64,000 nucleotides of DNA from Prorocentrum cordatum (taxonomy: Eukaryota). A program made the position numbers and the translations under genes. The notes under the pieces were generated by a model that was not told the DNA's origin, did not search any database, and saw only the letters and a program-made list of their open reading frames with translations. Below are positions 23,909 to 47,321 of this stretch, piece by piece. The number at the start of each line of letters is the position of its first letter. The stretch's first letter is position 1. The DNA lies in NCBI GenBank assembly GCA_963575745.1, contig CAUYUJ010000168.1, forward strand, positions 1-64,000, read 5' to 3'.

Positions 23909-26900
23909 TCAGGGAAAGCAGAAAGGGTCCTATGCACGCATGGGTCCTATGGAAAGCCGCAAAACTCAGGTATCCGATGATCGCAGCAGGAAGGGTGCGG
24001 GAGCTGTTGCGCATGCGCGCTTGGTCCTTGCTCGTGAGAAATGACGTCGCCACCAACCCTCATCGCAATTTCAATTAGGGTGGCAACTCTTGTGCGCGCG
24101 CGAACACGCCCGTTAGAATTGTCAGCGATGCCTCGCTTGTCGCGCGACGGCGCGGTGTTCGGGGCAGCGGGATGACAGCGGGCGCGTGCAGTCGCGTCTG
24201 CGGGGGAGAACTGATGCCCTTTGCGGGGTGCGCAGTGCCCAAGCTCGGCCCAGGAACCAACGGTCGGGCGCGCGCTGGCGCCCCTGCTGAACACGCCCTA
24301 GAGAACGGTCGGGACAAGGGGGATCCTCGGAGATCGGTGGGGCCTGAACTCGTGCCTAGAGAGCCGTTGGGTGACCGCGGGGGCCTGCGCTCTGGCGCAT
24401 GGGACATCTTGGCATCTGCGGGGGGCCAACCTCTGGCGCGAAGCAACCAGCGGGGTCCGCGCGAGCCCGCGCTCTGACCTAAAGAACCCGTGGGGTTCCG
24501 CGGGGATTTTAGCCCTGGCACGAAGGGTTCCCTGGGATTCGAAGGGCGCCGAGCTCTGGCGCAGAGAACCTCGAAGCATCCGCGGGGGGCCGAGCTCGAG
24601 CCTCGAGACTTCCCGTGAGCCCAAGGGCCCCTCCGTTCGGGCTCAGGACACATCTGGGTCCTTGGAGGGCAACGCTGATGCATGGGGAACTTGCAGAAGG
24701 TCAAGGGAACCTTCGGGGTCAGGGGAGGCCCAAGTTCTGGGCCAGAAAGCCAATGGATGTCCGCACGGGCCCGAACTGTCGCCCGCGGGGCCCGAGCGGC
24801 TCCATAAAGTCCCTTGTGATCCATGGGGGGGGGGGTTCGCGCGGGCCTAGAACCCGCCGAGATCTGCGGGAAAGCGGTTCTGGCGGGTAGAATCTCCAGG
24901 GGCCCGCAGCGGTCCGAGCTCTGACCCAGAACCGCCCGAGGTCTGCGGGGGCCCGAGCTCTGACTCAGAGAATCCCTTGGTATCCGCGGGATGCCAAGCT
25001 CTGGCTCAGAGAAAACTATCGGGAACCGCGAGGTTCCGTGCTCTGGCCCAGCAAAACCCGCAGGACCTCATGAAGCCGTGATTTATAGCTTTTAGGGAAT
25101 CCGTTGGGAGCCGCGGGGGTCCGAGTTGTGTTGTGGCTTACGGATGGCCCTAAGGGCTGTCGGGGCATGATCCTTGCCCTCGAGAGTCTCTCGGGGTCCG
25201 CGGGGGGCCGAAATCTTGTGTAGAGATTCGTTTGACGTCCGTGGGTGGGTGAATTCTGGCAAAGGAAATCCCAGCCGATCCGCGGGGGCCCTACCTTTGG
25301 CGCGGGGGCTCCTGAGGGGCCCGTCGGGTTCTCAGTGGTCCGCGGCGGCTTAAACTCTAGTCTAGAAGAATCCCGGGGCCCGGAGGCCCCCGTGGATCCA
25401 CCCGTGAGGATCGGCGCTCTGTTTTGGAACCTCACTATGGCCCCGTTGGGTTCGCTCTTTGGCCTCTTGAATTTCAGCGGGTTCGCGGGGGCCCCGCCCG
25501 TGGCTTTGAGAAATGTCATGGATGGATAAAACTGATGTGGGTATTGAGGGCATCGCGCTGTAATTGTGAGGATCCTTTCAGGGCTTGCAAGGGCCCAAGC
25601 ATTGCTTTAAAGCACCCGAAAGGATGATAATCGCCCGCGGGGCTTTTTTGCGTTCTGCCCTTTGTCGAAAATAATCAATCCTGAAGGGCCCGCGGGGTCC
25701 GAGCTCTGGCACAGGGGCCCCGATGGACTCGTCAGGAGTTGGGCTTTGCCCTGGGGTGTCCATTGGGGCGCGTAGAACTCCGACATATGGCTCGGGTGGC
25801 CCGATGGATCTAGAGAACCCTCGGGGATCTGCAGGTTGCGAACGCGGGCCTCTGGATAATCAGTGGGGGTCCGAGCGCTTGCTAGGAGAACCCTGACGGA
25901 TCCAGAGAAATCCTGGGGGCGCGCATGGAAGAGGAGGGCGAAAGGGGATTCTGAAGGGATAGGTAGGATGTGGGAATTGGGGCGTGGGAGGTACGAGGTC
26001 GGAGGTAGGAGAAGGGGCGGTGGCAGGCGCATAAGGGTGCGGATGGGGAGGAACAGCGGGACGGTGAAGACATATCGGGGTAGAACTCAGGAGGCGGTTG
26101 GTCTGATGTTGACGAACAACAGGAGTAGAACGGTCTCTTCTCTTTCAGACGATGACTTGCACGCGTGCTCCCGCGCGTCGGTAAACAAACACATCATACA
26201 AGACCTAGTGAACCGGGGGTGCGTGTTATCATGTGCACTGCGTAAGTGCCCGTGTGTCTTTGCTCGTTGAGAGCGAACGCTTCTCGGAAGTTGGATTGGG
26301 CCACCACTTCGCCCAGGGCGATGCCATCGTGCGAGGTTCTCTGTTGGCGCTCGCACGTCTGCTTTGTCCCCCCCCCGAACGAGCTGCAATCGGAAGTCGA
26401 AGCATGCGCCCGTTCTCCATTCTTTACTCGTTCGTATAAGGCTTCTTGGAGCTCATTCGGAGTTCCTGTGGAGCCTCTTGGGTCTCTCTCGGAGATTTTT
26501 CAGGGGGTGCACGTGGGGGCTCTTTAGGGGCACGGTCGCAGGCAGTCGGAGAGTGGGTGCGCGTGTCTGGACCACGTTGGTTCTTCCGAGCTCTCCCCGA
26601 GAGACTCAATCGCATGGAGCACGTGAGGGCGCGCGCGCGGGTCGCAGCCCTCTTTAGGGCACTTCTTGAATTGCATTGAACAGTTTTCGGGCAGTCTGAG
26701 GCCTGTCCTGGGCCCTCCGCGGGCCATGTTCGGCCGTCTGGTGAACGCCCCGAGGCTCGCGGAAAACTTTTCGAGGCGATCCGATGCTGGATTGCTGCGG
26801 ATACACAGTGCATGATACAATTTTGACATGGTGTACTTTTATTGGCCTCTTCTGGCATTGCCGGAAGCCTTCCAAAAAAGACATGCTCGGGCCATGGGTG

Positions 26901-27667
26901 TGTCTCCTGGAATCTGGTAGGGGGGTCCTGAGCCTTTTGGGGGTCCGTGGGCTGTGCGGGGCTGATCTTTCGCAGATGGCGCCTGTCTTGGGGCGATGTC
27001 GGGCCTGTTTGCAGCCGCGCGGATGCTCAAACCGGCTCTTCAAGACAAAACAGGCAGGCGATATTTCCTGGATACTCGTGGTCCCATGCGGGGGGGGTGA
27101 GCTGGGGAACCCACGGGAACCCTGCCAGACAATTAGCGAGCTATTCAACACGCCACGACGCGCCGAAGGCGCGCTCGCGGAATTTCAGCAGGGAGCGGTT
27201 CTTCCTGACGTTTGACCAGCAGAATTCGCACTAGGTGCCCATTCGGGCATTCGCACTCCCGCCTGTTGGAATTGCGCCCTCGAAGATCTCGGCATTCCAT
27301 TGCGTAAGGCCCGCCCGTCGATCCGAGGTTGCCTTGGAATTCCCTGTGCGAGCCGTGGAGGGATCGGCCCCCCCCCCCTCAAAGTTGCTGTTGGGTGGCG
27401 CATCCACCGATGCAGCCGCAAGTTTCCGCGGGTGGGGTAGCAATGTCATCTAACCTCAGCAGTTGGTTTCACTTGCCCCGCTCCAGGCCCCGCGAGCCAG
27501 ATCCTTTAGCTTAATCCCTGTCGTCGCGATCGCCCCGAAACTTCTCCTTCAACTTCTCCTCCCCCACTCCCCACGCCCTCATGGCATTCTCGGCTCAAGC
27601 TTCGGGTGCACGTCCGGGGCTACGGAAACGCAGCACGATATCCCACAGAGCACCAATACATCAAACA

Positions 27668-28720
27668 ATGGCTCAGCCGGCGGGCTCCGATGCGGGACCG
27701 TCGTCAGCGAAGAAGCGGAAGATGAGCCAGACTGAGCAGAACCAAATCTTCGACAAGATCGTGACCTCTCAGTTCGATGACAACATGGAGCTCCTTCGCA
27801 AGAAACTTGAGCACAAGAAAGGCTTGCTCACATTCCTCATTGGGCTGATCGACTCGGGCAAACTTGAGGAAGCATACGACCGCGCACACCAGGACACAGG
27901 AGAGGTCCGGCCAGCAACGTTTGCCCAGGGTTACAAGTACATGAAGCAGGCGGGCTCGATATGGATCCGGGACTTTCTGGGGCAGATGAACCCGACGTAC
28001 AAGATCCCTGACGGTCTGACCGAGGCCGAGAAGAAGGCACGGAGGCTGTCTTTGCCTGACTACATTCATCGCATGTGCCTGGCGCTTCGCATCCACCCCG
28101 ATTGCTGGCTCTTCCACATGCAACAGGAAACGACGACGCAGACGGCGGTCCAGCGCTGCCGCAACCTGAACAACCCCATCGAGACGGTGTCGCCAACGGA
28201 CAGCTTGGACAAGAAGGGCTTTTACACGGCCAGCGACGACAATGCGAAGGTGCTCGCTCTTGGTATGGGGCCGTTGCCGCAGGAGCAGCACGAGCGCAAT
28301 GGCAGCCCTTACATGTGGGTCCCCCCTCCGTCCGCAGAGGACGTCGAGTGGAAGTTCAAGGATAACTGGAATTCTCAAGCTACCATCATGCATCCAAATG
28401 GCGACGCTTTCCAGCTGAAGACCCGCTTCCAGTCGAAGTACCCCGTCCTCTTCACGGAGGCGGCGTGCACGCTTGCCATGTCCATCGAGGCGGATGGGGA
28501 GTCGCCACACCCGTCGCTTGGCGACGTCCGCCGCGCGTCCGTGGGCGGCAAAGGCAAACGTGGCAAGGGCAAGGGGGTTTCGAAGGGCGCGGCACCCGCG
28601 GCGCCCGCTCCGCCTGCGGCGCCTGCCGCTGCACCCGCGGCGCCGCCCGTTCCGCCGCCTGGCGGCGCTGGCGGAGGCGCCGCGGCGGCTCCGCCCGCAG
28701 AGGAAGAGGATGATGAGTGA
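27668..28720 (+). CDS. Intronless 350-aa hypothetical protein inside the giant transposon
   Basis: Clean ORF with strong GC3 bias, NLS-like 'AKKRK', basic 'GKGKRGKGKG', Pro/Ala linker and acidic tail. A degenerate SL relic (CATTCTCGGCTCAAG, ending 27599) lies ~70 bp upstream. Confidence 0.8.
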   Translation: MAQPAGSDAGPSSAKKRKMSQTEQNQIFDKIVTSQFDDNMELLRKKLEHKKGLLTFLIGLIDSGKLEEAYDRAHQDTGEVRPATFAQGYKYMKQAGSIWIRDFLGQMNPTYKIPDGLTEAEKKARRLSLPDYIHRMCLALRIHPDCWLFHMQQETTTQTAVQRCRNLNNPIETVSPTDSLDKKGFYTASDDNAKVLALGMGPLPQEQHERNGSPYMWVPPPSAEDVEWKFKDNWNSQATIMHPNGDAFQLKTRFQSKYPVLFTEAACTLAMSIEADGESPHPSLGDVRRASVGGKGKRGKGKGVSKGAAPAAPAPPAAPAAAPAAPPVPPPGGAGGGAAAAPPAEEEDDE

Positions 28721-29276
28721 TGAGTGTGGTTCCTGGGTGATTGCACGCGGCGCGGCTGCCTTGCAGAGGCGGGTGCAGCGTATTCCAAACGATGCCAGGC
28801 GCTTGGAATAACAGGCGCGCTTTTGAGCGATTGCCACTCGTGAGCTGTAGACCCAAGTTGTGCGCGTCTGTCCGCCTGCTGGTCAAGCCCGTCCGTGTAT
28901 CCAGGGGGCAGGTGACTCATCTTGCTCCTCTTGCGCAGGGATGGTGCCCAAATGATCCTTTTCGAGAAGCCCTGGTGTGCAATTCCTATTCAGAGGGGTG
29001 TTTTTTTTCCTTCCTCTCGCTCCTCCCCCCCACCCCTCTTTCTGTAAACTTTTACCTCCGTCTGCGCGTCGCCGCATCGAATTCGCAAGCGACCGAAACT
29101 TTTCGAGTGCCGCCCCTTTCATTCCCGGGGGGGGGGGCCACGGGGGGCGGCCCGAGGGCGAGCGGGGCAGCAAACTGGGAGGCGACGGGGGCCTGTGTAT
29201 TGCGCGGCGGTGCCAGGACGACGGGGAGGTGGGCTGGGGGGAGATGCGCGTGAGGGAGAGGAGCGGGGGGTGGGAA

Positions 29277-30165
29277 TTGTTGACGCTTCGCCTATCCCCA
29301 CCAGCCCATCCAGAAACGACGCCCAGGCGAGTTGAGGTGCCCAGGGAAGTGTGGGAGCAAAGATGGAGAAAGCCGAGCCGAGCCAAGGAGGGACGTCTCC
29401 CCCTCCCTACGTCGCTCCCCCTCCCCGCCGCCCGCGCACCCGTTATGTCATCGATATTGGCTCCTGGGGCTGAGCACACGCAGAAAATGTTGCAAAACAC
29501 AATACGAAACGCCAACATTGAGGTGGGAAGATGTTTGCCCAACGTGGTACATTTCTCCCCCACTTTATGTTTGGCGTTTCGCATTGTATTTTTACAATGC
29601 ATTCTGCGCGTGGCGCCTGGAGGGCTCCAGAATGCATTCTGCGCCCTCCCAAAAACCTCAAGGAGAGCAACAAGAGGGCCGCAAAGTGGCTCCAAGGGGG
29701 CCCCTAGAGTGTTCCACGACGGCCGAAAAAGATATTCAGATGGCCATGGCCATCTGAATATCTCTTGGGCCCCTTTTTGGGGCCCTCCGGGGGCGCGGTG
29801 GGCCCTCCCAAGAGGCTCCAGGAGCGCCCCAAGAGGGCCGCCAAGTGGCCCCAAGCAGGCCGCCAGAGGGCTCCAAGACGGCCGAAAAAGATATTCAGAT
29901 GTCCATGGCCATCTGAATATCTCTCGGGCGCTTTTTTGAGGCCCTCCGGAGGCTCGGTGGGCCCTCCCAAGAGGCTCCAGGAGCGGCCCAAGAGGGCCGC
30001 CAAGTGGCTCCAAGGGGGCCCCCAGAGGGCTCCAAGACGGCCGAAAAAAATATTCAGATGTCCATGGCCATCTGAATATCTCTTGGGCCCCTTTTTGAAG
30101 CCTTCTGGGGGCTCCGTGGACCCTCCCATGAATCTCCAGGAGGGCCCCAAGAGGGCCGCCAAGTA
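29277..30165 (-). mobile_element. Helitron2/Helentron-like family, copy 2 (other end not found)
   Basis: Starts after AA| and shares ~200 bp with 39961 onward (GTTGACGCT...CCAGCCCATCCAGAAAC...GGCGAGTTGAGGTG). Contains three 159-bp repeats. Confidence 0.55.
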
Positions 30166-30484: not shown

Positions 30485-33400
30485 TTGCCACTTCCGAGGG
30501 TTAAAACTGAGGCCTCAGTTTTAACCCTCAAGCGGACCAGGTCACCGAAGGCCCCCGACCAGGAGCCCTGCCAAGGGTGGGGTGCCGTCCTAGTGTTTCT
30601 CTACACCAGTTGCACTCCCGACCTTCCCTCTGCCATGGCGCCGTGCCAGGTTTGCCTCCGTCAATTTGGAAAGGAACGCTACAGCAGGAGTGCAACTGCA
30701 GCAGCCACTAGTTGGAGACAGCCGCCAAGACCGACCCTCAAGGCAGCTTTAAAGCTGCGCGCGCACGGCGCCGTGGACTCTTCCACCGCCTCGCGCGCGA
30801 ATGCAACATGAATTTCGAAAGAAACGCTACCGCAGGCGTGCCACTACCGCAGCCACTAGTTGGAGACAGCAGCCATTCTTCATCAGGGAGGGGGAGGAGA
30901 GGGGAGAGGGAGCGGGAAGGGGGGCCACTGACGCCAGACCACAGCGCGAAAGAGAAAAGTAAAAGGAAAGCGGAGGCAAGAACCTCCCATGCCCGCCCCG
31001 CGCACGAAGAAACGCTGCAAGCGCAAAAAGAGCGGAGCCCTCTTGGAGCCCCAAAAGGGCTCTAAGAGGGCCAGGAAGAAGCGGCTCCACCGACCCCTAG
31101 GGGCAAACATTATGTTAACACGCTGCGGCCTGAGCACTGTTCTCCTAAGCACTGGCGGGACCTAGGGGCAAACATTATTTTAACACGCACTGTTCTCCTG
31201 GCGGGAAGTAGGGGCAAACATAATGTTAACAACCTAGGGGCAAACATTATGTTAACAGGCATTGTTCTCCTAAGCACTGGCGGAACCTGGGGCGCACATT
31301 ATGTTAACACGCTGCGGCTTGATATGTTCATCTTGCCGGGACTGCGCGGTGGCCCTGGGCTGGTCTTGGGCTTCGCCCCGTCAGTCCGTGGCTTCCAGAG
31401 GGGGTCACTTGAAGACGAGAGTTGGGCCAAATTTGTTTCTCAGGTGACCCCTGGTTTCCCCTTCCCGGAGCGTCCCTCCGAGCCCTCCGTCCCCGGAGGC
31501 GTTGTGCACAAAGCATGCCGAAGTCGAATTCCGCGGTTGGTGCGTTCTCTTCTGCCGCAGGTCACTTCAGAGCTGCCTCGGTCGATCGGCCGCCGTCCGA
31601 GGCGCCTTTGAGGTGCCTGTGGCGTTCTCCCGTGGGCCGCGATCGAGGGGCGCGGGGTAGGGGGAACAGAAGGAGCACGGGGAGATATAGTAGGGCCGCA
31701 GATGAAAGCACCCCGTCAAACAGACATTCGCAATCCACACCCCAACCACTCTGGCTCGAATCCAAATTCAAGTGACGCTGAGAGCAGCCTGCGCCATCCC
31801 CCCCCACTCGGACCTCTTAGCATGGAGGTCCCTCACGTGGGCCTCGTTCGCCTGACTGTCGGCGGCGCTTCCGGGCAATGCTTGGAGCACACGGGGACTG
31901 GTGAGATCGTCAGGCTACCTGACGACATGGGCCCAGATTGTGCACTTGCCTTCTCAGGTGATGGTTTCGCTTACTTGACGCTGCCGCACCGTAGGAACGA
32001 CCGAGTGGGCGAGATGGCATCCGACGGTGTTTCTTTCGTTGTGTGGGCAAATAATATTTTCACTCGGACCTATCACAAAACCGACTCAGGCAAACCTTTC
32101 GTGAAGAAAGAAGATGGCGCCGCCGTGTGGTGCAAAAAACTTTCCGAGGAGTCTTCGTCATCAGGTTTTGAACATACCAGAGGCACAAACAAGACCATCC
32201 ACATTCAGGTTTGGCTCTACACTCTGCCAGTCGCTGGTTGTTTCATGTTTTGGTCTCTGCCCTGCCTGGTCCTGGCAATGCTGGGGAGGTACAGTTGGCC
32301 ATTATTGAAAAAAAGAGTCGAAGCATGCAAGAGGATCGCGTTGCAGCTCGGCCTCGATGCATCGAGCTGCATGCCGAGCACCCGTTCATTGTTAGCTTCT
32401 GCGAGGAATGACATACGATGTGGTGGTGAGGGCAAGGTGAGGGCTCTCGACCTCACTCAAAGCAGCGACGACACCAAGCTTTCCACGACTCTCATGCTTT
32501 GGTTTCTCGTAAAGTCATTGGTCAGCAAGGGGAAGAGCGAGCCACAGGAGGCCGAGAACTCCAGACTTATCATGGAAACGTTCTTTGACAGGTATCTCGC
32601 GCACGACGGCGCTTTTTTCACCTACGGACCAGAGGCTGCGATTGGGGAGGCCGCTATTCCACCTCGACGGATCGTGGTGGCAGGCGGCGGCGTGGATGCG
32701 GGGGCCTTGACGATCCTTCTCGGCCACGGGTTGGCCGCGCAGTTTTTCAGACGCACTCCAACCGACGATCATAACAAGGCGCCTGCGTAAACCCAGCGAG
32801 CCGTAGCCGCAGCTCCGAAATCACAGAGTTCTTAGGTTTCGTGCTCGTTTTGGTCCGACAACCTTTTAAACGTGTTCGTGTCATGCTGCGCCTTGCCCTT
32901 CAAACCTCCATCTCGCGAGCTGCGTCTATCTAGCGGCCTCCAGCCCATCCCGCCGCCGCGCTTTGGTCATGGGCTAGGCGCATCCGAAGGAGGCCTGGGT
33001 ACATGGGGGCACACCGTGGGTTAGGACTGATTGCGCGAGCACTGCGCCTCAAGGGTAATTGTTTGGGAAGCGTTACATTTTGCGCAAGAGATCTGACTTC
33101 AGTCGGGTCCAAGGGGGCCCAAGACGGCTCAAAGACGGCTGGAGGCGGCCCAGGGCGGTTCAAGAGAGTTCCAAGAGGCCCTCAAGAAAGCCCCTAAAGG
33201 TCTCAAGAGGCTCCCGAGAGAGCCCCACGAGGGCTACAGGAGGTCCCAAAGAGAACCCCACAAAGCCCCAAGATGGCGCCAGGACGGCCCACGCCATCCC
33301 AGACGGCCCACAGGGCCCTAGGACGGTCCAAGGAGGGCCCAAAGACGGCCCAAAAGAGCCCCAGGAGGGTCCCCAAGAAGGCACTCGCAGGCCACATGTT

Positions 33401-35924
33401 TTTTCCCGTCTGCTTTGTTTGATTAGATTCGACGTGTACGCGTCAAAATCTTAACGCCCAGAAAGCTCCGAGACGCGATGCAAACGTTCTCGCGCCCTCG
33501 CAAAATACGAACGTTTTCTGTCCCCGTGCTTCCCACATACTCATCCTTTCAGGAGCCAAGGCTTCGCCAAATGGTACTGGGAGTCCCAGGGGGTATCCAG
33601 GCGCTCCATTCTGTGCAAGTCGCACGGTGGCGGATAGCACGTTGCACCCCAGGTGCCGCTTGTGTATCTGTTGCGTTTCCTGGGGAACCCTATCGGGAAG
33701 GACCCGTCGAGTGATGCCAAGATCAGCCTTGCCAAAGACATCATTTCCAGCCTCGCATGCGTCATGGAGTGTTCAAGGGTGGACGGAGACAATTGGCCGA
33801 CTGAAAAGATATTGGAGTTGCCAGCCATAACCACGCCGACAGGGAAGAACCGCAAGACAACCAGACTCTACAAACTAGAGCTTTTAAAGAAAATGAAGCA
33901 ACATCCAGCCCTGAAGACAGCCAAAGCAGCACTTGCTGGAATGAAGATCTGGGGTCGCAAAGGGAAAGGGCGTGAGACCGTCTCCCAGGCCACGCGGTGG
34001 GACTGGGATGTTTTCTTTGGTTACATGTCCAATGGGTGGCCCTTCATGCCGAACCGCGGGTCCCTTTGCATGCAGACCGACGGGGTGTGGCTCGCAGGTG
34101 AGGAGACAACTCATTGAATGCGCCTGCGGTGGACCACCGCCTCCCCCTGCCTTGTGGAAGCGCCTGTGCGGCCAAACGTTTGGGCCAGAGCTTGGCCATG
34201 CTTGACCTTCTTCGCGCCGTTGTAGACCGTCTTGGGTCCATCTTGGGCCGTCTTGGAAGCATTTCGGGGCCATCTTGGACGTCGTTGGGGCCGCGTGGGC
34301 CGGTGTGGAAGCGCTTAAGGATCGTATCGGAGGAGACCTTGGGCCATCGTAGCAGCCCTGGAAGCCATATAACGACTTCGAGCGCCCTTGGGGGGGCCCC
34401 GTGTGCCAGCCAGGATCGGGCGACATCTTTTTCGGGAGCTTTTCAAAAATGCATCCGCGGACAAAGTTCGGAGCGCCAATAACCCCGCTTGCAGGCAACA
34501 AGGGGCGGTGGATCCTGTGGCCTTCGGCATCTCCCGCCAAGGTGTCCGGGTTGTGGGCCAAATCCTTCGTGGATGCCCCCTGGGGTCTCGGGGGGTGCCT
34601 CCTGGGGGCGACATTGGGGCCTCCTGGGGGCAGCTTATTGGCCTCTTGGGGGAATCTTGGGGGCCCCCTGGGGGCTCCAGGGGGGGTTCGGAGGGGCCCC
34701 GGGGACACGTTGGACGTATGGGAGGCCATCTTGAGGGGAGATGCCCCGCCAGCCACCTCGAGTTCCCCCTCTTTCTCCCCTCATGGGGTTCTCTTGGGGC
34801 CTCTTGCACCGCCTTTGGGCGTATCGGGTAATTCCGGGGCCGTTCTGGGCAGCCGAGGGTTTTCCTTCGGGGATGATGAGGTCGTCCCTGGGGGGGTCTT
34901 GGTGGCTCCTTTGGCCGATTCAAGCGTCTTCAAGTTGGCAAAACGCGACAACTCGGAATCAACGCGGCAATACCATTCGAGCTTCAATGGTTTTGGCAAT
35001 GTCGGGTCTTCTTGGGGTTCCCATTTGGGGCTTTCTTGGGGCGTTTTCGGGGCAGCCTGGCCCGTCTAGAGTCCATATTGGGCCGCCTCGGGGCGTTGAT
35101 GGGTTGATGGGGGGCCCCTCTCTGGCCATGCTGCCGCCCTCTCGGGCCACCCTCGGCCCGTTTTGGGGCTGTCTGGCCTCGCGAAAAGCCACGCGGCGAT
35201 CCCAGGGAGTCTGCGGAGCGCCCCGCCCCCGGGGCCTCCTGGCTATTCAAGGAGCGCGGTGAACATGCAACACAGGGAGTTCGAAGGGACTTGCAGAGAC
35301 TTTAATTCGTGCTGCGGGGCACGGTGGCGGATTACATGTTCTGGGACCCGTCCGGCGACAATCACGTGTGGGCGCCTGTTCAGGCGGGATCTTTGCTTCA
35401 AAACTTGGGGCGAGCGTTGCCCGTCCCAAGTTGCTCACACGTTGTGGACATATGCCCAGGCCCGACCTGATCTTTCGAGGTCCGAGCTTGGCGCCCCCGT
35501 CCGCACTTTTGAGAGACCCCCTTCGTACTTTTGAGAAATGTGCTCAAAAGTTGGTTTCGCCTGATACATCCGCACTTCATACTTTTGAACGACCACCTTC
35601 GTTCTTTTGAGCGACCCCCTCCGTACTTTTGAGAAATCCGCTCAAAAGTTGGTTTCGCTTGAGACATCAACGACTGTTACTTTCGAGAGGACGTCCTCAC
35701 GAGTAAAGCTTGGTACTTTTGAGCAAGGACCCCCCCCCCGCCCCTCGCACACAGGAGGCGCCAAGGTGGGGAAGGCCCGTGCGCTGCAGTGCCACTGGAT
35801 GGCTAGGGCATCTCTTGGCGCGGAGCTGGGGCGCGACAGTGGGGGCGACCCACTGATGCATTTGTCTTGCCTTCGTCGTGGGTGCCCCATGCCGTATAGG
35901 AATTCCAGTGGAGAAAGCCCGCGG

Positions 35925-36345: not shown

Positions 36346-36674
36346 CGAGGCCCAGAATAAAAGTCAAGACAGCGCCGTCTTGACTTTTATTCCGGGGCTC
36401 CGCCGGCCTCCCAATTGGCGGCGCCCGGGGAGCCCATCTTGCCGCTCGCCGCTCGCGGACGGGGGGGTACCCTGGGAGGGTTGTCGTCCCCGAATGCCGC
36501 AGCCAAGAGAGCCCCAATTGGAGCCCGAGGAAGGCGCGAGATTGAGTTCCAGGATGTGCATCGGCCGTTGCACATCTCCCAGCGGGATGAAGGGGGCCTT
36601 CAAATTGGGCCTCTTGGAACCCGACTGGAGCCCTCTTGGAGCTTTCTTGGAGCCCCACAGGGCTCCAAGAACCC

Positions 36675-37097
36675 CCCAAGAGGGCCCAACACCTTTTCAC
36701 GTAAAAGAGCCTTGTTCGTGATAAGGTGTTGGGCCCTCATGGGGAGCTCTCGGGGGCCTCTTGGAACTCTCCTTGGGCCCTCTTGGGGCCCTCCTGGAGC
36801 CCTCTTGCAGCCCCAGAAGAGTTCTAAGAGGGCCCCCGAAGGGTTCCAAAAGCCCCCCAAGAGGGCCCAACACCTTGTCACGAACAAGGCCCTTCTTCGT
36901 GACAAGGTGTCGGGCCCTCTTGGGGGCCTCTTGGAACCCTCCTGGAGCCCTCTCGGGGCTCTCTTAGAGCCCTCTTGGAGCCCCAAAAGGGCTCTAAGAG
37001 GGCCCCCACAGGGCTCCAAGGACCCCCCAAGAGGGCCCGACACCTTGTCACAAAAAAGGGCCTTGTTCGTGACAAGGTGTTGGGCCCTCTTGGGGGG
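36675..37097. repeat. Three tandem units, each with a long hairpin
   Basis: CCCAAGAGGGCCC(A/G)ACACCTTGTCAC...GTGACAAGGTGT(C/T)GGGCCCTCTTGGG at ~170-180-bp spacing. Confidence 0.8.
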
Positions 37098-37152
37098 CTC
37101 TTGGAACCCTCCTGGAGCCCTTTTGGGACTCCACCTGCGCCCCCTTCAGACA

Positions 37153-37174: not shown

Positions 37175-39960
37175 CTTCTCCAAGGATCGTTCTGGGGGCC
37201 TCCCGTGAGCGCCGTGGCCGCGCGGGGAGCCGTTCCGGAGGGGAAATTATGGTGCGAAACACATTGTCACCTTAAGTTGGTGCTTCGCAGACCGTCTTCG
37301 GGCCCTGTGGGGGTCCTCTTGGCGCCGCTGTTCGGCCTTTTTTTGGCTTGTCTGGGGGCCTTTCCGGGAGCGCCGTGGCCGCGTGGGGAGCCGTTTCGGA
37401 CGGGACATGAAGGTAAAAAAAAAGCTCTCGCCTCACTTTACGCCCAGCTCGGTGGCCCCTGAGCCACCAGATCTTGTAGGGCCCCGCCGCGCCCTACAGG
37501 ATCCGCGGCCTTGTCCTGTAGGGCCCCGCCGCGCCCTACAGGATGCTGCTGCTGAGGCTCGTCTCTGAGGCATGGCCTCACCCCTCGCCAGTTCGGCTAG
37601 TGTCCGTCCCGTCGGATGCTAGACCTTGACTGTCCCCATTGTCGCCGTTTTTTGGGTCACCCGATGTTGTTGAGGACGGTGGTGCGTTGATTTTGGCGCT
37701 TGATTTAGGTCATCCTGAGGATCCTCCTTGGGGTCTCAATGGGCGTCCTCAGGGCTCTCTTCGAGACTCGGGAGCGTCCGAGGCGGGCTCCCAAAGGCCT
37801 TCAAGAGGTGCCGAAACCTGACACAAGTTCGGCGTAAGCCGCTCCCTTGCTGAGGACAGTGGCGCTTTCAATTCGCGTTGATGTTTGGGTCCTTTGGGTG
37901 GCCTTCTGTGGGCTCAGGAGGCCCCGTCGGTCCGCGCTCTGTGTCCATGCAGCCCCCCAGGCGGTCTCCGCGGGCCCCCCAAGAGCCCCCATCAATCGAT
38001 TCAGATTTTACGTACGCAAGCCGTTCCCGTGGTGAGAGCGATGGCGAGTTCAGTTTGCGTTGAACTTTGGGCTTTCTGGGTGTCCATCTTGTGGCTGTTC
38101 GAGTGCCTCCTAAATGTCCTGCGCGCCCTACTGAGGCTTACATATAATTTGGATGTGTCGGGATTTCTGCTTGAAGCGTTTGAATTGTTTCCACGCCAGT
38201 GCGACGGGGAATTTGAACAGGTTTGGAACGTTGCCCAATAGGTTAAGCGTGAGAAGAAGACGAGGACAACGGAGCCCGGCAGCACCCCCACCATTGCTGA
38301 GAGGGAGCACTACAGCAAGGCCATGGAAACTTTCTGGGAGGGGGCGAACGAGCCAGCTAAAAAACGTCAGAGACGATCATACGTGGAGACGCCAAGAATG
38401 GCAACGCTCCTTTGGATTCGGGAGACGGACAACGCCATGAGGCACAGCTTGAGGAGGCGTTTATCTTCATTCCAGGTCGATTTGGACCAGGTTAAAGCTC
38501 TGATGGATGATAAATCGATGTGCTTCCAGTCCCTTGCAAGGACAGCCCCAATACTTTCTGCTGTGCTGGATCAGGCGCCTTGGCAAGTGACGGGCAGCCA
38601 TTTTTTAAAGTATAGCAAGATGATTAACCTCGTCACTCTGTGGGACCCTGCAGCCCATCGTATACACAATGATTGGAAGTCCGGGATATCTTGGGCTAAA
38701 CTGAATACGGCTGTGTACGCAACTACGACGCTATTCAATTTTACGTCTGGCCCTTGCAAGTCCGCAGGGCGTTGGCTTACCAACATACAAGAAACCATCT
38801 TCTGGCCTGCGCCCTCCGTCGCCGCCGCCCCGGGATCGGGGACCCTTGGGCCCTCTGGATACATCTTGGGTCTCTTGTGCGCCTTCTGCGGGTTCGGGAA
38901 GGTCTCTCTTGGGAATCTCGGCGAGGCCCCTGAAGCCTCGAAGGGCCCCGTGGCGACGCCAGGGGGCGCCGCTGCGAGCGTCTCGGGAACGCGTCGGCGG
39001 CGTCGCGTGCATCTTCGTTTTTTTTTTTTGCGTCGACAAGTTCCATTTTTGAGCGGCTTCTGGGGGCCCTCTGGGGTGCTCGTTGGGCTCCTCGCGTTGG
39101 TTCGGGGGTCCTTGGCGGCGGAATGGGGAGCTTCCAGAAACGGGTTCGACGCCCGAAACGTTGCGCGAGCGAATACAGTGTAAGTTGAGAGCGCGCCTGG
39201 GAGTTCTGAATGGTTTCGTCCGCTTCGGTGGAAGCCTGTGGCCCCGATGAGGCCCCAGGACACCCCGAACGCTGCTCGAGGACGGACCCCTCGAGGCATC
39301 GGCAAGCAAGCCGAATGACTGGGACTCGGATTGGCCCTCGGGGGCTCCGAGGCAAGGCGCGCGGGGATCCGCGGGGGCCCTCAGGGGCCCGCGCGCTCGA
39401 GCGAAAGCAATTGGATGCATGGTGGCTTACAGGGCATGCCAATGTGAACATTGTATGTTTTGGGGCTCCAGAGGGCGCCCCAACCTGTGCCGGGAGCACG
39501 GTGGCGGTTTCTGGAGGCGAAGGAACTGTTGGAAGAAAACGACGCCAGTCTTGTGGCCTTGTGGCCCGACATTTGTTTCGAGCGCGGTTGGCGGACAGAG
39601 TCCGAGACAAACGTGGAGGCGAGGAAACAATTCATCAAGGACCTCCCTTTTCTCGATATTGTGCAGAGGCAGGGAGAGACCATCGCTTTGGCGCGCTGGC
39701 TCTCATATCCGAAAGGTGAGAAACAACGACGTAAAGGTTGGTCTGAGACACTTTTGTTGTTGTTGCACTGGGGCTTGACCACGGGCGCTGTTTCGAAGGC
39801 GTGGCAAGTTTGGAAGACCACAAAGGTGAAGGAGGCGAAGGCGCAACAAGACGTCGAACCGCCTCTGGGGGGCGAGGGGGACTCCGAGAAAACGGCGGCT
39901 TGCCCGATCAAGACTTCTTCGGAAAATATGGGTGCCATCTACAAGCGGTGTAAAAATCAA

Positions 39961-41567
39961 TAGTTGACGCTCCGCGTATTCCCGCCAGCCCATCCAGAAA
40001 CAACGCCCAGGCGAGTTGAGGTGTCTAGGGAAGTGTGGGAGCAAAGATGGGGACAGCCGAACCGAGCCAAGGAGGGACGTCTCCTCCTCCCTACGTCGCT
40101 CCCCCTCCCCGCCGCCCGCGCACTTGTCACGTCATCGATGTTGGTTCCTGGGGCTGAGCGCGCGCAGAAAGTGATGCAAACCACAGTGCGAAACGCCAAA
40201 ATTGAGGGGGGATGAAATTTGCCCAAAGTGGCACATTTCTTCCCCCCTCAATGTTGGCGTTTCGCATTGTATTTTACAGCACTTTCTGCGCGTGCTCAGC
40301 CCCAGCAGCCGAGATCGATGACATGACGGGTTGGCGGACGGCGAGGGGAGGAGCGCCTGCCCTTCCTCCTCGAGGACGAGGAAGAGGAGAACGAGGAGGA
40401 GGAGCACGAGGAGAAGGAGGAGGAAACGAAGGAGGAGGACGAGGAGGAGGAACAGGGCGAACATAATAGCCAAAAGCATCTTGAATGCCTCTCGGGGTCT
40501 CCTCGGATTGATCGTATACGCTTTTTGAAAGAGGGATTTCCTTGGGGATGTGTTGCGGCCCTTTTGGGCCGTCGCGGAGCTTTCTTGGGCCATTGCAGCT
40601 CTCTTCGGGTGCATGTCGGAGCCCTTATAGGCTCCAAGAGGGCCCAAGAGCAGCATAACAATTACATAAAAACACATGGTTCTGGATCCTGGGGCATGCC
40701 GCTGTTAAGACGGCCCTTAAACGTTTTTTGAAGGCCTCTTGAGGCGTTAGGGGAGCTTCTTGGCAGGCCCAGGTGTATTTTTTGTGCGTTTTGGGTGCCC
40801 CGGGGATTCTCTTGGAACCTCTCGGCGTCTTGGGTGCCTCCTGGGAGCCTCCTGGGAGCCTTTTTGGGGGCCTCTTGGGGGCCGCTGGGGTCCTATTGGG
40901 GGCCTCTTGGGGGCCTCTTGGGAGCCTCTTGGGGGCCTCTTGGAACCATCTTGGAGGCTTCTTGGGGCCCCTGGGCGCCTCTTGGGGCCACCTTGGAGGA
41001 GATCGATCAAAGAAGAGGGGCCCCCTAATTAGCGTCGCCCCCTCGAGCCTCTAAAATCGCCTCTTGGACCCCTCTTGGAGCGCTCTTGGAGCGCTCGGGC
41101 GCTCTTGGGGCCGTTTTGGGGCTCTCTTGGGCCCCTCTTGGGGCCCTCTTGGGCCATCTTGGAGCCATCTTGAGGCCTCGGGGGGCCATCGGAAGCGAAA
41201 CGGCGAGAAAACAAACATCATGTGCTTTCCTTTGGTTGTTGGAAGATGTTGGCTTCTTGGGGCCGCCTTGGCAAGCTCTTTGGCCTCTTGGAGCCGTCTT
41301 GGGGCGATCTTGGGGCCTCTGGGAGCATCTTCGAAGCCATCTTGCGGCATCTTAGGCTATCTTGGGCCATATTGGAGCTCATCTCGGGCTCTCGGACGCG
41401 CTCTCGGAGCCGTCTTGAGCGAAAAAGTACCGTCTGACATCTCGCGACCGCCCCCGTTCAGGTCCAGAGGAGGGGGTAGGGGGAGAAGTAATCCCCTCCC
41501 TGAAGGGGAAGAAGGGGGTTGGAAGAGGAAGCTCCCTAAACCACCTACGCCCAGAGGGCTGGTGGGA
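39961..41567 (-). mobile_element. Helitron2/Helentron-like element, copy 3, interrupting a transposase exon
   Basis: Removal gives in-frame 'KRCKNQ|LHVCLEL' at AA|TT with no TSD. Subterminal CCCGCCAGCCC, terminal GGGCTGGTGGGA and an ACGC-GGA-GCGT mini-hairpin. Confidence 0.75.
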
Positions 41568-44500
41568 TTGCACGTATGTTTGGAGCTGGCCGCGAGCCCC
41601 GATTTGAAAGAGGCAAGCCGGATAATCGGCATCGTGTCGGAGCCGTTGAGCACCCAGCATGGCCACTGGATGCAGGATCTGAGAACTAAGGCTGGTAGCC
41701 GTAAGTTTTTTCTAGATGCCGCCACGTGGGGCCACGTGGGTGAGCTTCACGCGTTGATCGATTGTCTCTTCTGTCCAGAGAAGCTCGAGTGGATGGGGCT
41801 CGACATGCATCCCCCGAGCAAGCTCCCTGGAGCCACAGTGCCAGAAGAACGCATCCTCTCCCAGGACATCGCAGCCAACGAGATCTGGACGCTCACCTTT
41901 GGCATGCTGAGAGCTCGCGCAACTACCCAAACTTACTATGCAACTGCTTACCCATTGATTTTGGCACGGTCTCTTTGGGATGACCCCATCAAGATCAACG
42001 CGTTCTTGTCGCAAACAAAGACTGCATGTGAAATGTTCAAGAAGGCCGAATCAAACCCAAACGCGTTCGTGCAGCAGCTTGTGCGCCGGAGCCAGATGAT
42101 GGAACCCATTATGAGGGTGACTTCTGTGATTCTGCTGCACGGCAACTTCGGACAGTATGCTGTGGATTCGTTAGTGGCGCATTGGAAACAGGCATTCGAG
42201 GGCATAGCCACGTCTAAGCCAATGGAAGACAACAACAGGGCTGCTAGATCAGAGGAAACCCGAGCTCAAGAATCGAAAATGATGACTCGGGTTCGGAGGT
42301 CCTTGGTGCCAGTCAAATCGGATATCGGTGCAACGTGGGATCGACCTGTCCCGTCGTCCACACAAGCATCTTTGCCAACTCCGGAGAAGCTCCGAGAGGA
42401 TTTATAGAAAACGCCTGCGGCGAAACACTGCCGCCCTCTGCCGCGTGCAAGTGCCAATGCAACCAAACGTTCGGCCAGAGCTCGGCCAAGCTACTGGACG
42501 ACGTGCCCCCCAAACCATACCCTTTCGGGGGACACTTGGGGGGGAAAGGAAAACGATCAGGAGAAGGAGGAACATGGGGAGTAGAACGAGGAGGGAGGAG
42601 GAGGCATGATGGGGCCATCTTGGAGCCTCCTGATGCCTTTTGGCGGCCTCTGGGGCCACAGTGGGATCGTGTCGGAGCCATATTGGGCCGTATTGGATTT
42701 ATATCGAGGCCATTCTGGCCGTCTCGGAGGGCATGTTGGACCATGTTGAAAGCCATTCAGGGCCATCCTGGCCGCCTTGGAGGCCTCCTCGGCCGTCTGG
42801 GAGTCCACCTTGGGCCATTCTAGCCGTCTTGGAGGCCATTTCGGGCCGTATTGGGGGAATCTTTGGAGCTCTTCAGGGGGCGCGTTGGGCCATCGTGGAG
42901 CCATTATGGAGGTCAGCTGGGCCGTGTGAGGTTGTCGGAAACCTGAGATGGCGACAGCGCTAAGCTCCTTGAGTGCACACTTACAATTAATGCTACTGGG
43001 CCTCGCGAAGGCTTCCTGGGGAATCTCGTGGATCACCCTGGAGCGGCCCAGGGACCTTTAATATAGTCTTCAGCCCATATTGGGCCGCCGTGGGTCCATG
43101 CTGGGCCGCCGAGGAAACATTCATGGGCCATTAGGGGCTCGCTTGGAGGGGGCTTGGACAGCTCGGGGGCGTCTTGGGGCCCGCCTTAAAGGAATACTGG
43201 GCCGTCCCAGCCGTCTCGGAGTCAATGTTTGATCGCCCTGGGATTGTCTCGGGGCCATTGTGTAGGCCCACTGGGCCGTCCTCGGGCCATCGTGGAGGCT
43301 TTCGGGGGGCGCGCTTGGGGTCCCCAGGGGCGTCTTGGGGGCCCCTCGGGCCGTCTTGAAGCCGCCCTGCGCCGTCTCGGGGCGCTCGTTGGCCGAGCGT
43401 TGTTTTTTTTTAGACCGCCACAGGGCTCTGTTAAGGCCCTCGTGGCCCGTTCGAGGTCTCTGTGGCATCGGGGGGGGGGGGGCCGCGTGGCGATCCCCGG
43501 GGAGGCATGGGCCCCCCTTGCTCCTGGGGCCGCTGGGCACCCCCAACAGTTCTCCGCATGCTCGTTGCAAAGACCTCCGAGGGACCTGAGGACACCTCAA
43601 CTCGTGCATCGGGGCACGGTGGCGGATTTCGCGTTGGGGAGGTCCAGATAAAGAGCGAGGGCATTCCATGCAATGATGTTTTGAAAGACCATACCTGGCC
43701 CACGGTGACTGCCCACGAGCTCTTCAGGTTCTCTTCCGAACAGTCACTCATATCGTACATGGTGCGCACCGATTCCATTTCGGTTGCAGACTACTTTTGG
43801 TATGCTTCTATCTTCCCCGAAGGGGAGGTCGTGCACAACTTGTTGACTGATTCCTTCTCTTTGGTACTTCGTGTTGCGGAAGATTCGGGGGTGCTTATGT
43901 GGCCGTGTGAGCTCACATCAGACGAATACATTTACCTTAACAGGCCGACGTTCCTCGAATGGACTCACGTCGACGACTTGAAGGAATGGAACATAGTGAA
44001 CACTACGATCGTAAGCCCCCTGAGGTTGATGACGTCCCACGAAGGCGCGAAGCTCGAGAACCCCATCGGCTGCGTCATCAGACGCAGCTCGGCCGATGAC
44101 TCCAGAATGCTCGCTTGGCATGCCCAGCGAGCTTTCGCCCACCTGCCACAAAAAACAGTGAAGCGGCTAGTTGAGGAGTACGGCTTGAAAGCGAACGCTG
44201 AGCTCGGCAAACTCGGCCTGGAATGCCAGGAAGAAGCCGAGATCATGGCGCTCATGATGAAGGTGACTGAGGGCATGGATGCAAACCAGTGCGAGTTGGC
44301 ATTCTCGAAAAGGCGGAAGATTCTTTCTGGGGAGGACACTTCGGCGCTGCAGCCGATCATCGATGACCCTGAGATGCTCGAGCTTGTCGTGCCCACTAAC
44401 GAGGCTAACAAATGGAAGTCGAGGGGGGCTTCGGAGGAGGGAAAACGAACCCAGCTCTCGGCCTCTGCGAAAGCTACCAAAACCATGCGAGATAAACTTT

Positions 44501-46248
44501 TTCCGGCCGCCAAGAAAGCCGCGGCCAAGGCCAAGGGCAAGGCGCAAGGCCCCAAGCTGTCCGTGGCTGCACGTAAGCATCGGAGGGAGCAAATCGCAGC
44601 AGGGGACTTCCAGGCCGTTGAGTTCTTCAGGCCCCCCATGCTGCGGATCACGGTAGAGGACGGACTTGGGCCCCGCATTGTGCGAGCGAGGGGCGGTTGG
44701 CATTCCTCCCCGCCTCCCCGTCCGCGCATTGCATTGCGCCTTCGGTGCGTAATCAACCGATTGTAAGTTATATGCCCAATGCTCTTCCGAAACAACTTTC
44801 AGGCCGAGGTTGTGGGGGGGGGGGCAGGGGGATTGCCAGCCCGTGATTCGCTCGCTCGGCCGGGGCCCTAACAGGAGAAGGGCACGTGCCTGCGCGTCTG
44901 GGATGGACATACTCGTTTGAGGTCGTTTTCCTGGTTCATGCGGGGCAAACCATTGGCAATTTCTGAGACTCTCGCTTTTGCTTGGGATTACGCCAAATGC
45001 ACTTATGAAGCTGAGAACCCTTTTCCAAAAGATGCGTTCTGAGCTCGGCAGGTTGGCCGTGTAGGGTCCCGCCAGGGCGGGGCGCAGTAGAAATGTGACC
45101 ACCTCCCTTCCTCTCCAGTCCTCTCCCCTTCCATGCCCCATGCAGGGGCCGCTGGGGAAGCCGATCGAACTGCCAAGGGCGCTCCTAGGGACTTCCGTGG
45201 AACGCATGGGCGCCCCACTAACATGTCATGAAGCCGTCCGCATTAGGAGCGCCAGGGAGGCGCACATATAGCAACAGTATCGGCGTTTGATGATATTTTC
45301 CTGTCGGCAAGGTTCCGCATAATCACTCGGCATTTTCGTAGTGCCCCTCGCTATCACTTACAACCTTTGGGGGGGCTTTCAAGGCCACGGCGGCGTCGCC
45401 GTTAGCCACGTGGGGCCTTGTTGGAATTCTTCGTCATCTTGGACATGCCATTTGCTGTTTGCAGCGGGGCGTCGCCTCCCTAAGTCCTCCAAGGGGCCCG
45501 CCCAGAACGAATCCTCAGGATGCCGCGAGGCTTCTCGGGGGGCCCTTTGAACACTTCAATCGGGGGGGGTGTCGCGAGCCCGGGGCTCCTCAGAAACTTG
45601 GAGGGGGGTCTTTCTACGCCGTCTGAGCGGCTGAGAACCAGCGCCCTGAGCGTTGACCGCTGGCCCGCGAGGGCGACTGGGCAGGGCAGCCTCCCAGCCG
45701 GGGCTTCGCATTTTCCACTTGCTCCCCCATCCCCCCCCCCTCCCCTTTCACTCCCTCCTTCCCTCCTTCCCGCCACCGCCTCCCCGCGCTCTGCTCATTT
45801 CTCCAGATTTCCTCTCTCCATCCCCTCCCTCCCTCCGGCCCCTCTCCCTCCCCTCGGCTGTCCTCGTTTCCTTCCCTCCCCTCCCTCCCCCTCCCCCTCT
45901 TCGGCATTATCCTCCCCCGTCCCTCTCGCCCGCCCCTCCCCCCCCCTTCCGCGCACTCTTTCTCGCGGCAGTTTCGGGCCCAGTCGGAACAGGGCTAAGC
46001 CAGTCATGCTCGGAAGGCGACGGGGGTGGATTCGGCGTCGGGAGAGAACTAGCAGGCGGACGTGCAACTGAACGCCGGGGTCTCAGAATTTCTGAGTGGA
46101 CGCCAACGTGTCGGACATTCCCGCCCCTCCCCCACCTCCCCCTCCGCTCCATTCGGGCGCTCCCCTTCCCACTCCCGCACGGCGCTTCCCTTGTCGCCCC
46201 CCCTCCCCGCCACCCCTTCCCCGCTCCCCCCCCGCCCCCTCCATCCTT

Positions 46249-46270
46249 TCCGTTGCCCTTTTGGCTCAAG
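46249..46270 (+). other. Near-complete spliced-leader relic (20/22)
   Basis: TCCGTTGCCCTTTTGGCTCAAG vs DCCGTAGCCATTTTGGCTCAAG. Not followed by a GT donor. Confidence 0.8.
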
Positions 46271-47321
46271 CCTCCTCCCGTCGCGGCGGGTGCCCGTATT
46301 CTTCTTGCCTTTTGTTTAAAAGGTGTCGCTTGCATTTCGTTTGAAAGGCGTCGAAGGCAACAGCGTGCGCAGATTTCTTCGCGCGCGCCCTGACCTCGCA
46401 ATTGCATCGTTTCGAGGGGCTTCGATCTGACAGGCGGTCGCTGTTCTGGCAGATAGTTGACATGCTGAATGCATTGCGTGTTTCCTTCAGTGCGCTGGCG
46501 CACGGAAGATCGCGGAAAACTGCGGCAATTTAGCAGGGTCGGAACAATCCCTGCTAGGGGTGCGCGGGGGCGGGGTGACACAGGTTCGCAGTGCCCTCTG
46601 TTGGGCGTATTGGGAGGATATTGCTGCGTTTCTGGGCTGACGGGGCCTCGCCGCGCATGCGCTCAGACGTGCGCGCCCCGTTCGGGGTGGCCCCCGACCG
46701 CGCGGTGATCCGAGAAGCCGAGACCGGAGCCTGGAAGCAACATGCCATGGGGGACATCTCAGGATGCGCGCGCACCGATGGAGGGGAGTGGGCCGCCAGA
46801 CAGCAATTGAAACCTTTGCCGCGCAACCCGCTGGCATGTCAATGCGCCCAAACGTGTCGACGACCAGGTGGCCAATGCGACGAGTATTAATGACGCACGC
46901 CCGCCCCCATGCCCAGAGAAATCATCCGGGGACTGTCGCTGTCATCTTGCTTGAGTGCTCACGTGTTAATGAAATGAGCGGGAGGGCCACCTGTCGAAGG
47001 TTTCGCTACATTGGCCGCGGCGGGCCAGGGCGGCGTTCGACGGCGCCGAATATCGATCAGTTGCCCGCGCTGGTGCTGCGCAGGCATGCGGGCAAACAGA
47101 CTGTGAGCGCGAGAGTCGCATGTGAACGTCGCCCTTGACCTGATGCACGTGGCCTCGCTACGGCGCGCGCGCCGCGGAGGCCTTGGAAACCGCCGTAGCG
47201 AAGCGAATGCAACCTTTCCGCTGGCGCTTTCAGCGGGCCCATGTGTTGCATACCTAAAAGTACACTCAAAAGTACACTCACAAGACCCATTCGCGCATAG
47301 GACCGTTTCCGCTTTCCCCTA

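Follow-up and report, generated by a model that had tools for sequence, protein, structure and literature searches.

How did 23.4 kb of DNA come to interrupt the pol gene of a retrotransposon in the dinoflagellate Prorocentrum cordatum, and does this DNA encode the enzyme that moved it? The question is raised by the first 64,000 nucleotides of contig CAUYUJ010000168.1 (assembly GCA_963575745.1; this whole stretch is the window referred to below), where a segment bounded by terminal inverted repeats (TIRs) splits the polyprotein frame of a retrotransposon predicted to be of the Ty1/copia type. We are confident that the segment is a real DNA transposon which inserted as one unit. It carries three transcribed genes, two of them with introns, and the largest of the three is a candidate for the transposase gene. 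The insertion and its host are defined by the following features.

23904..23908, no strand: left copy of the target-site duplication, TTGAA, the same as 47322-47326
23909..47321, plus strand: whole inserted element, 23,413 bp; its removal with one TTGAA restores the host open reading frame (ORF)
23909..23951, plus strand: left TIR, 35/43 identical to the right end, its core motif confined to both ends
47279..47321, minus strand: right TIR, partner of the left repeat
47322..47326, no strand: right copy of the target-site duplication, TTGAA, matching the left copy
20682..23903, minus strand: host pol ORF downstream of the insertion, with an integrase-like region followed by an RVT_2 reverse transcriptase
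47322..49206, minus strand: host sequence upstream of the insertion, with 155 pol-frame codons (47322-47786) and an overlapping 507-codon ORF (47686-49206)
19331..19479, minus strand: long terminal repeat (LTR)-like direct repeat, 149 nt, 99.3% identical to its partner at 50768-50916
50768..50916, minus strand: partner LTR-like repeat, with TGGTAAGCGG next on the minus strand, which resembles a primer-binding site (TGG...)

With a slash at the point of insertion, the left junction reads ...CTTC TTGAA / TCAGGGAAAGC... (in longer form ...GAGCTTC TTGAA / TCAGGGAAAGCAGAAAGGGTCCTATGCACGCATGGGTCCTATG...) and the right junction ...GCTTTCCCCTA / TTGAA CAG... (longer form ...CACAAGACCCATTCGCGCATAGGACCGTTTCCGCTTTCCCCTA / TTGAA CAGTAG...). 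The TTGAA that the initial annotation had placed on both sides is therefore present to the letter. The duplication is perfect at 5 bp; with C23910 as the first base of the element it extends to 6 bp, one of them mismatched (TTGAAT/TTGAAC), and 8 bp is excluded (TCTTGAAT versus TTGAACAG). The element ends in CAGGG at 23910-23914 and in TAGGG, the reverse complement of 47317-47321; both the ends and the size of the duplication agree with what had been described. Aligned without gaps (23909-23951 against the reverse complement of 47279-47321), the TIRs match at 35 of 43 positions, and the count of 32/38 given earlier was reproduced over the shorter span to which it applied. The similarity stops about 43 nt in, and a local alignment of the terminal 400 nt from either side finds no more. 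A 24-nt TIR core with two degenerate positions is present at both termini, in opposite orientation, and nowhere else in the window, where none is expected (100 shuffles); exact GGTCCTATG occurs three times in the 64 kb, at the termini only. Within the left TIR lie two direct copies of GGGTCCTATG (23925-23934 and 23942-23951) and GGAAAGC motifs.

The interrupted gene provides the strictest description of the event. The minus-strand ORF 47319..47786 ends in ...GTT CAA followed by TAG, a stop supplied by the end of the element, and in the minus-strand ORF 20682..24059 a codon (GAA) begins at 23903. Deletion of 23904-47321 removes 23,418 nt, or 3 x 7,806. Since this number is divisible by three and the flanking frames agree, the two halves rejoin through GTT CAA GAA (V-Q-E) into a single frame of 155 + 1,073 codons; the initial annotation had read the same V-Q-E junction. 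Inverted repeats, an exact duplication and an in-frame scar thus coincide at the same two bases, which argues for transposition of the whole unit over a chimeric assembly or chance.

The assignment of the split ORF to a copia-type pol also held. Its RVT_2 match lies above the Pfam cut-off (E 4.2e-10; 1.3e-9 in another Pfam scan), and a match to rve, below the cut-off (E 2.7e-4, 21.6 bits against 32.6), is located upstream of the reverse transcriptase in the same ORF. With an RVT_2-type reverse transcriptase downstream of an integrase-like region and LTR-like repeats at both ends, the host is by its sequence a predicted Ty1/copia-type retrotransposon, measuring about 8.2 kb without the insertion. 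The LTR-like repeats start with TGTTGA on the minus strand and differ at 1/149 positions, and one of them is preceded by a purine-rich tract (minus strand). A protease-like LDTAC motif was recognized by eye in the 507-codon ORF; Pfam recorded no family in the upstream minus-strand ORFs of 47322..49206. No clear target duplication of the retrotransposon was seen at its ends; (CCT)n flanks it at one end and (GAG)n at the opposite one. Since the LTR-like repeats are almost identical and the pol frame is long and open, the host copy is young, and the 23.4-kb insertion is younger still.

A separate observation concerns the pol region that was split. Its halves (minus strand, 47322-47786 and 23700-23903), which lie between the protease-like and the integrase-like parts, resemble the N-terminal half of a C5 cytosine methyltransferase (DNMT): the motifs LFCGQFG and MPCGPWG precede the insertion and MEQPLGS follows it. 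This is a motif reading, and neither Pfam (E<=10) nor a search of PDB sequences returned any match for the two halves. DNMTs have been reported in LINE and DIRS elements of Symbiodinium, whose Copia elements are said in the available portion of the same text to be without them (PMC5890265). If real, a DNMT-like region in the present copia element would be notable against that background.

What does the element carry? Ten public runs matched the window, and contigs from four of them were aligned to 27401-47400: X1, which is DNA-like, and X2, X6 and X8, which are RNA-like and come from two studies. X6 and X8 are presumed to be RNA and X2 is unlabelled; none of the three is recorded as RNA, and they are treated as RNA-like because of their spliced-leader ends and splice joints. 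The RNA-like contigs define three genes, all on the plus strand.

27584..27599, plus strand: degenerate spliced-leader relic directly 5' of gene 1, where the genome reads ...GCATTCTCGGCTCAAG
27592..28949, plus strand: gene 1, an unspliced transcript (X2, X6 and X8 contigs) with coding sequence (CDS) 27668-28720, 350 amino acids (aa)
31768..35470, plus strand: gene 2, exons 31768-32776, 33651-34112 and 35331 to at least 35470; CDS 31822..35470, 518 aa; two introns
38240..45116, plus strand: gene 3, exons 38240-38797, 39509-39959, 41567-42403, 43626-44656 and 44873-45116 or beyond; four introns
46249..46270, plus strand: second spliced-leader relic, TCCGTTGCCCTTTTGGCTCAAG, near full-length (15-mer search, 1 mismatch)

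Contigs of gene 1 from X2, X6 and X8 align from 27592 and bear a loose end, TTTTGGCTCAAGCCATTTT, before that position. The TTTTGGCTCAAG... found there corresponds to the 3' part of what we take to be the dinoflagellate spliced leader, so gene 1 has the transcript end of a dinoflagellate nuclear gene; the contigs of genes 2 and 3 begin with short unaligned stretches that may likewise be leader sequence. Exon 1 of gene 2 is identical to P0102, a protein annotated in its source as unnamed, from Prorocentrum cordatum. The leader letters and this identity bear out the dinoflagellate host that had been proposed from the sequence alone. As a relic of the leader stands in the genome upstream of the intronless gene 1, the gene would derive from a retroposed cDNA and is likely a retroposed gene copy. 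The relic at 46249-46270 (two differences in 22 from the leader consensus, with no convincing ORF behind) appears, judging by its letters, to mark a second retroposed piece. Together, the two relics indicate that retroposed cDNAs sit inside the transposon.

Where the initial annotation had counted at least two genes and foreseen introns, the contig joints thus give three genes, two of them multi-exon. Genes 2 and 3 occupy 31.8-45.1 kb, with open frames of 518 and 1,014 codons after splicing (three runs, two studies). The gene 3 joints are those of a 3,466-nt X2 contig and recur in X6 and X8, except for 38797/39509, which, like the gene 2 joint 34112/35331, was found in X2 only; the third exon of gene 2 is defined by this single 33-nt joint. 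Gene 3, the largest in the element, has a spliced ORF of 1,014 aa that ends at 45039, with its stop codon at 45040-45042. X1 contigs cross three exon-intron borders by at least 31 nt, and none of them contains a spliced joint. G+C content in the window is 55-68%, in a genome described as high-G+C in the available part of its report (PMC10666404). The three genes belong to no known family and are mutually unrelated (local BLASTP, best E 0.28), no further copies of them exist within the 64-kb window, and the left 3.7 kb of the element (23909-27591) has no convincing ORF.

Could one of these genes encode the transposase? Attention falls on gene 3. A HMMER search with its exon 4 against 1.84 billion representatives retrieved 98 proteins at E<=1e-3, 22 at <=1e-10 and 5 at <=1e-30, the 98 being clusters at 50% identity. 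Eleven are full-length (918-1,126 aa), and the five exons of gene 3 align with them in unbroken order over the entire length, P0003 being the closest at 35-54% identity; this colinearity indicates that the gene 3 joints are the true reading. Full-length members are about 20% identical to one another. By these comparisons gene 3 is a member of an unnamed family of ~1,000-aa proteins without a Pfam domain. Several residues are nearly invariant in the family (alignment A3, P0003 numbering): D119 (12/12), H148 (15/15), G179 (15/15), E565 (46/47), R572 (45/48), E575 (42/48) and R577 (43/48). A word-indexed protein search, insensitive to distant relatives, returned for gene 1, gene 2 exon 1 and P0003 their own clusters only. 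In metagenomes, a pattern made from gene 3 exon 1 had 38 matches, none of them a relative, and the TIR pattern had 0 matches. A viral origin was considered and rejected: BFVD yielded no match at E<=1e-3 and PHROGs one chance-level match.

An AlphaFold2 model of P0003, built from 58 aligned sequences (pLDDT 85.4, pTM 0.83), is mostly helical. Two strands, 114-118 and 139-143, are each followed by a conserved Asp (D119 and D144), and E565 lies in a helix about 420 residues after this Asp pair; beyond it come a beta-rich domain (689-771), helical bundles (~790-920) and a C-terminal three-strand-plus-helix domain. In the model, the order of the acidic residues suggests the D, D, E of hAT transposases with a large helical insertion between them. 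The longest structural alignment, reached by two routes, is with Hermes, the hAT transposase of solved structure; the match is weak and falls within the noise. It joins residues 56-609 of the model to 215-609 of the Hermes chain, and the two ranges end at a similar distance past E565 and past Hermes E572. The Hermes range presumably begins after the first three strands of that protein, and whether D119, D144 and E565 are equivalent to the Hermes triad cannot be read residue by residue.

The termini point in the same direction. hAT elements end in the consensus 5'-YARNG, which the ends of the element fit in inverted orientation, forming YAGGG inverted-repeat ends. Typical hAT elements are 2.5-5 kb long, with 10-25-nt TIRs and 8-bp duplications (PMC3942097, available part), so that the size of the present one is, as had been remarked, far above the usual. 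The initial annotation had also held the 5- or 6-bp duplication against hAT. That objection falls: according to the accessible text of PMC12730594 (citing Kapitonov and Jurka 2007), groups hAT5 and hAT6, reported from an animal lineage of hAT and not from dinoflagellates, have 5- and 6-bp duplications, the very sizes found here. As a candidate enzyme, gene 3 offers a possible parallel to hAT transposases in its conserved D, D (the second in 9/13) and E residues, with a long helical stretch between the second and the third. Unlike hAT transposases, it shows no hAT sequence domain in 58 family members, no five-stranded RNase H-like sheet in its model, and neither a BED finger nor a hAT dimerisation domain among the domains detected; it is also about 1,000 aa long, with an extra C-terminal beta-rich part and helical bundles. 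Because the sequence-domain test failed, we do not file the element as a member of hAT. The hAT link would then be a lead, drawn from three weak, independent hints: the YAGGG termini, the hAT5/hAT6 duplication size and the Hermes alignment of the model.

On balance, we lean towards regarding the element as a copy of a class II transposon very distantly related to hAT, in which gene 3 would encode the transposase, gene 2 being either cargo or the source of an accessory protein. Taken singly, the assignment of gene 3 as the transposase gene is plausible at a little short of an even chance, and kinship with hAT is more tentative still. One could envision that the transposase binds the ~43-nt imperfect TIRs, for which the internal GGGTCCTATG and GGAAAGC repeats would be the likely binding sites, and that, as a DDE-type cut-and-paste enzyme, it makes a 5-nt staggered cut at TTGAA. 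The target would have been the pol gene of a Ty1/copia-type retrotransposon that had itself integrated not long before, and the 23.4-kb element would have been joined into it whole, already loaded with genes 2 and 3, the retroposed gene 1 and other retroposed and repeated DNA. It is tempting to go further and to see in gene 3 and its ~1,000-aa relatives the transposases of an unrecognised dinoflagellate lineage, either a deep branch of hAT with a remodelled core or a new superfamily, whose members span tens of kilobases, carry spliced and trans-spliced genes and cargo, and are still moving in Prorocentrum; taken together, we hold this set of claims to be rather unlikely.

A number of results weigh against assigning the transposase to gene 3 and the element to the neighbourhood of hAT. 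None of 78 internal ORFs (>=120 aa) scored above the Pfam cut-off, none of eight exon translations matched a Pfam family at E<=0.01 (searched to E 1), NCBIfam had no match for the element's proteins, and PHROGs had the one chance-level match. The gene 3 family behaves in the same way: Pfam gave 0/25 relatives above cut-off and no family common to more than one of 58 members, even at E<=10, and the family profile met PDB sequences at E>=1.1 only. Foldseek with the P0003 model found no match at E<=1e-3 in PDB or BFVD. The model has two short strands, against the five of an RNase H-like core, and so does not show a complete DDE core. A model of exon 3, which covers part of the helical domain and E565 (pLDDT 87.6), resembled generic helical bundles, Hermes not being among its best 50 rows. 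Conservation of the second Asp is imperfect, D144 being present in 9/13 sequences (G in 4/13); D153 is present in 10/13 and absent in 3/13. To this must be added the 43-nt TIRs and the 23.4-kb size, both beyond typical hAT values, the likeness of genes 2 and 3 to ordinary host genes (introns, spliced-leader-like unaligned 5' ends), and the fact that the family status of the element is judged from one copy, that of the window.

Much of this would be accounted for if the element were a non-autonomous carrier of cargo, mobilized by a transposase encoded elsewhere (hAT5/6-like, Transib-like or another enzyme with a 5-bp stagger), with genes 1-3 as captured or hitch-hiking host genes that play no part in transposition. 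We consider this a real possibility, though short of a probable one. No transposase is recognisable by sequence in the element; the three genes are all expressed, share a strand and, with their introns and 5' ends of the spliced-leader type, look like normal dinoflagellate genes; the relics at gene 1 and at 46249-46270 imply that the interior collects retroposed DNA; and the exon 3 model failed to reproduce a Hermes match that was itself within noise. Large TIR elements of unknown lineages, however, often prove to encode transposases that had escaped recognition. Hermes is still the longest structural alignment by both routes, and a protein with invariant D, H, E and R residues, whose family spreads over 98 clusters with about 20% identity between full-length members, resembles an enzyme of a mobile element more than it does cargo. 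Non-autonomous DNA transposons are indeed on record for this host, the introners of P. cordatum having been attributed to them (PMC10666404, available sections). Were the element such a passive carrier, it would mean that TIR elements can still move large functional blocks of host genes in dinoflagellates. If gene 3 is the transposase gene, it would give a name to a large 'dark' protein family, possibly with a new transposase fold, and a handle on gene duplication and dispersal and on the mobilisation of non-autonomous, introner-type elements.

A third explanation, that a small TIR element entered the copia ORF and later grew to 23.4 kb through nested insertion and retroposition, has to be judged against the repeats of the interior.

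29275..29612, plus strand: copy of a dispersed repeat of which another copy opens gene 3 intron 2, making up its initial 336 nt (87.6% identical, self-BLAST)
29640-30167, plus strand: three tandem units, period 159 nt, a stretch of 210 nt recurring from 29640, 29799 and 29958
35938..37142, no strand: tandem or satellite-like repeats between genes 2 and 3, with a 32-nt period array (35938-36376) and 11-nt GGGCCTCTTGG-type arrays
39960..41566, plus strand: gene 3 intron 2, 1,607 nt, AT..GG, with dispersed repeats and ends that pair (CCCGCCAGCCC / GGGCTGGTGGG)

Dispersed repeats, satellite arrays, two spliced-leader relics and an intron made of repeats are what such growth in place would leave behind. 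We nevertheless regard it as improbable, for the single difference in 149 positions between the host LTR-like repeats leaves little time for it, and two intact, expressed multi-exon genes spread over 13 kb could not have been assembled piecemeal and must have arrived jointly. Neither were inner TIR or LTR boundaries found, and other long-range inverted repeats inside the element amounted to satellite-type matches only, in a search whose 11-nt exact seed would miss short or imperfect repeats, as it missed the element's own TIRs. The weakest alternative, an assembly chimera or a chance resemblance of the junctions, is very improbable: the window is repeat-rich and 15 of 200,000 random pairs of 43-mers drawn from it reach 35/43 (pairs which we assume, uninspected, to be (CCT)n/(GGA)n arrays), but the element's termini are not low-complexity and their core is confined to them, a misjoin would not yield inverted repeats, a 5-nt duplication and in-frame restoration at the same two bases, and the low-depth X1 DNA contigs (word depth about 2-4) agree with the unique parts of the interior with 0-3 differences.

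Several other kinds of DNA transposon can be set beside the element. Transib elements have a 5-bp target duplication, TIRs of a few tens of nucleotides and CAC-type heptamer ends. The element is like Transib and RAG1-like systems in the duplication and in TIR length and unlike them in having no CAC-type ends; a RAG1/Transib-like protein was found neither by Pfam nor among the fold-search matches listed, which does not amount to exclusion. Polintons (Mavericks) are marked by a protein-primed DNA polymerase B, an rve integrase, capsid genes, long TIRs and a 6-bp duplication. With these, and with Starship and Teratorn elements, the present one shares a size of tens of kilobases, movement as a unit, genes unrelated to transposition and short duplications, and it differs from them in its short TIRs and its dinoflagellate host. 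In the 78 internal ORFs and eight exon translations, Pfam revealed neither a protein-primed polymerase nor an rve integrase, a capsid gene or a tyrosine recombinase, and the TIRs of the element, at ~43 nt, are not those of a Polinton. The novelty is that of a DNA transposon with TIRs and a target-site duplication, without an assigned enzyme, of unusual size and with spliced cargo. Dinoflagellate genomes are huge and repeat-rich, and autonomous DNA transposons have barely been described in them. Among the results listed in searches of the open-access literature, we found no description of a giant DNA transposon from a dinoflagellate, and in the available text of a 2024 review of dinoflagellate genomics the word 'transposase' appears 0 times and 'DNA transposon' once (PMC11453091). 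The interrupted gene fixes the limits of the present copy to the base, and the copy records a clean, probably recent move of a 23-kb unit with three expressed genes.

The introns of genes 2 and 3 deserve separate mention. Four of the six are non-canonical, with AT..GG ends in three and TC..GT in one (34113-35330, 38798-39508, 39960-41566 and 42404-43625). The other two, 32777-33650 and 44657-44872, read GC..AG and GA..AG after a 2-nt shift, intron 1 of gene 2 being GC..AG. Several introns (five) have in common a 5' motif, CGCCTGCG, located 8 nt into the intron, and a 3' motif, GCACGGTGGCGG, with which the intron closes. The ends are able to pair, with cofold z values of -3.0 and -3.9 for two introns. 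Intron 2 of gene 3 starts exactly where the dispersed repeat starts (its copy at 29275-29612 is 87.6% identical over 338 nt), and its end resembles 16161-16285 (82.5%), related repeats being present at 15456-16285. A transposable-element insertion is thus being spliced out with precision as an intron, its AT..GG ends notwithstanding. Non-canonical introns and introner elements are known in Amoebophrya (PMC7789003, available part) and, from the genome paper cited above, in P. cordatum. The introns described here are like dinoflagellate introners in their non-canonical ends, their short inverted repeats at the ends and the one intron composed of dispersed repeats; the likeness concerns the introns of the carried genes and not the 23.4-kb element itself. 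No description of the conserved intron-end motifs was met in the available portions of the Amoebophrya and P. cordatum introner papers.

Among the remaining repeats, the 11-nt period GGGCCTCTTGG-type arrays at 40741-42074, 34071-34737 and 28735-29401 have a summed X1 word depth of 1,600-28,000, against about 3 in unique sequence, and belong to a satellite or repeat family that is extremely abundant in the genome. An RNA-like X6 contig terminates at 40909 in spliced-leader sequence in reverse complement, which places the satellite region in a trans-spliced transcript, made either on the minus strand or by a different repeat copy. Contigs have loose ends at 29274/29275, on the border of the dispersed repeat. 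Rfam recorded no family within 19000-51500. Outside the element, (CCT)n at 19041-19330 and (GGA)n at 59250-59555, each ~290 nt, form an inverted pair 40 kb apart that is 90-92% complementary, and comparable (CCT)n/(GGA)n arrays are found again at 1.7-2.4, 4.4-4.9, 5.8-6.6 and 11.4 kb.

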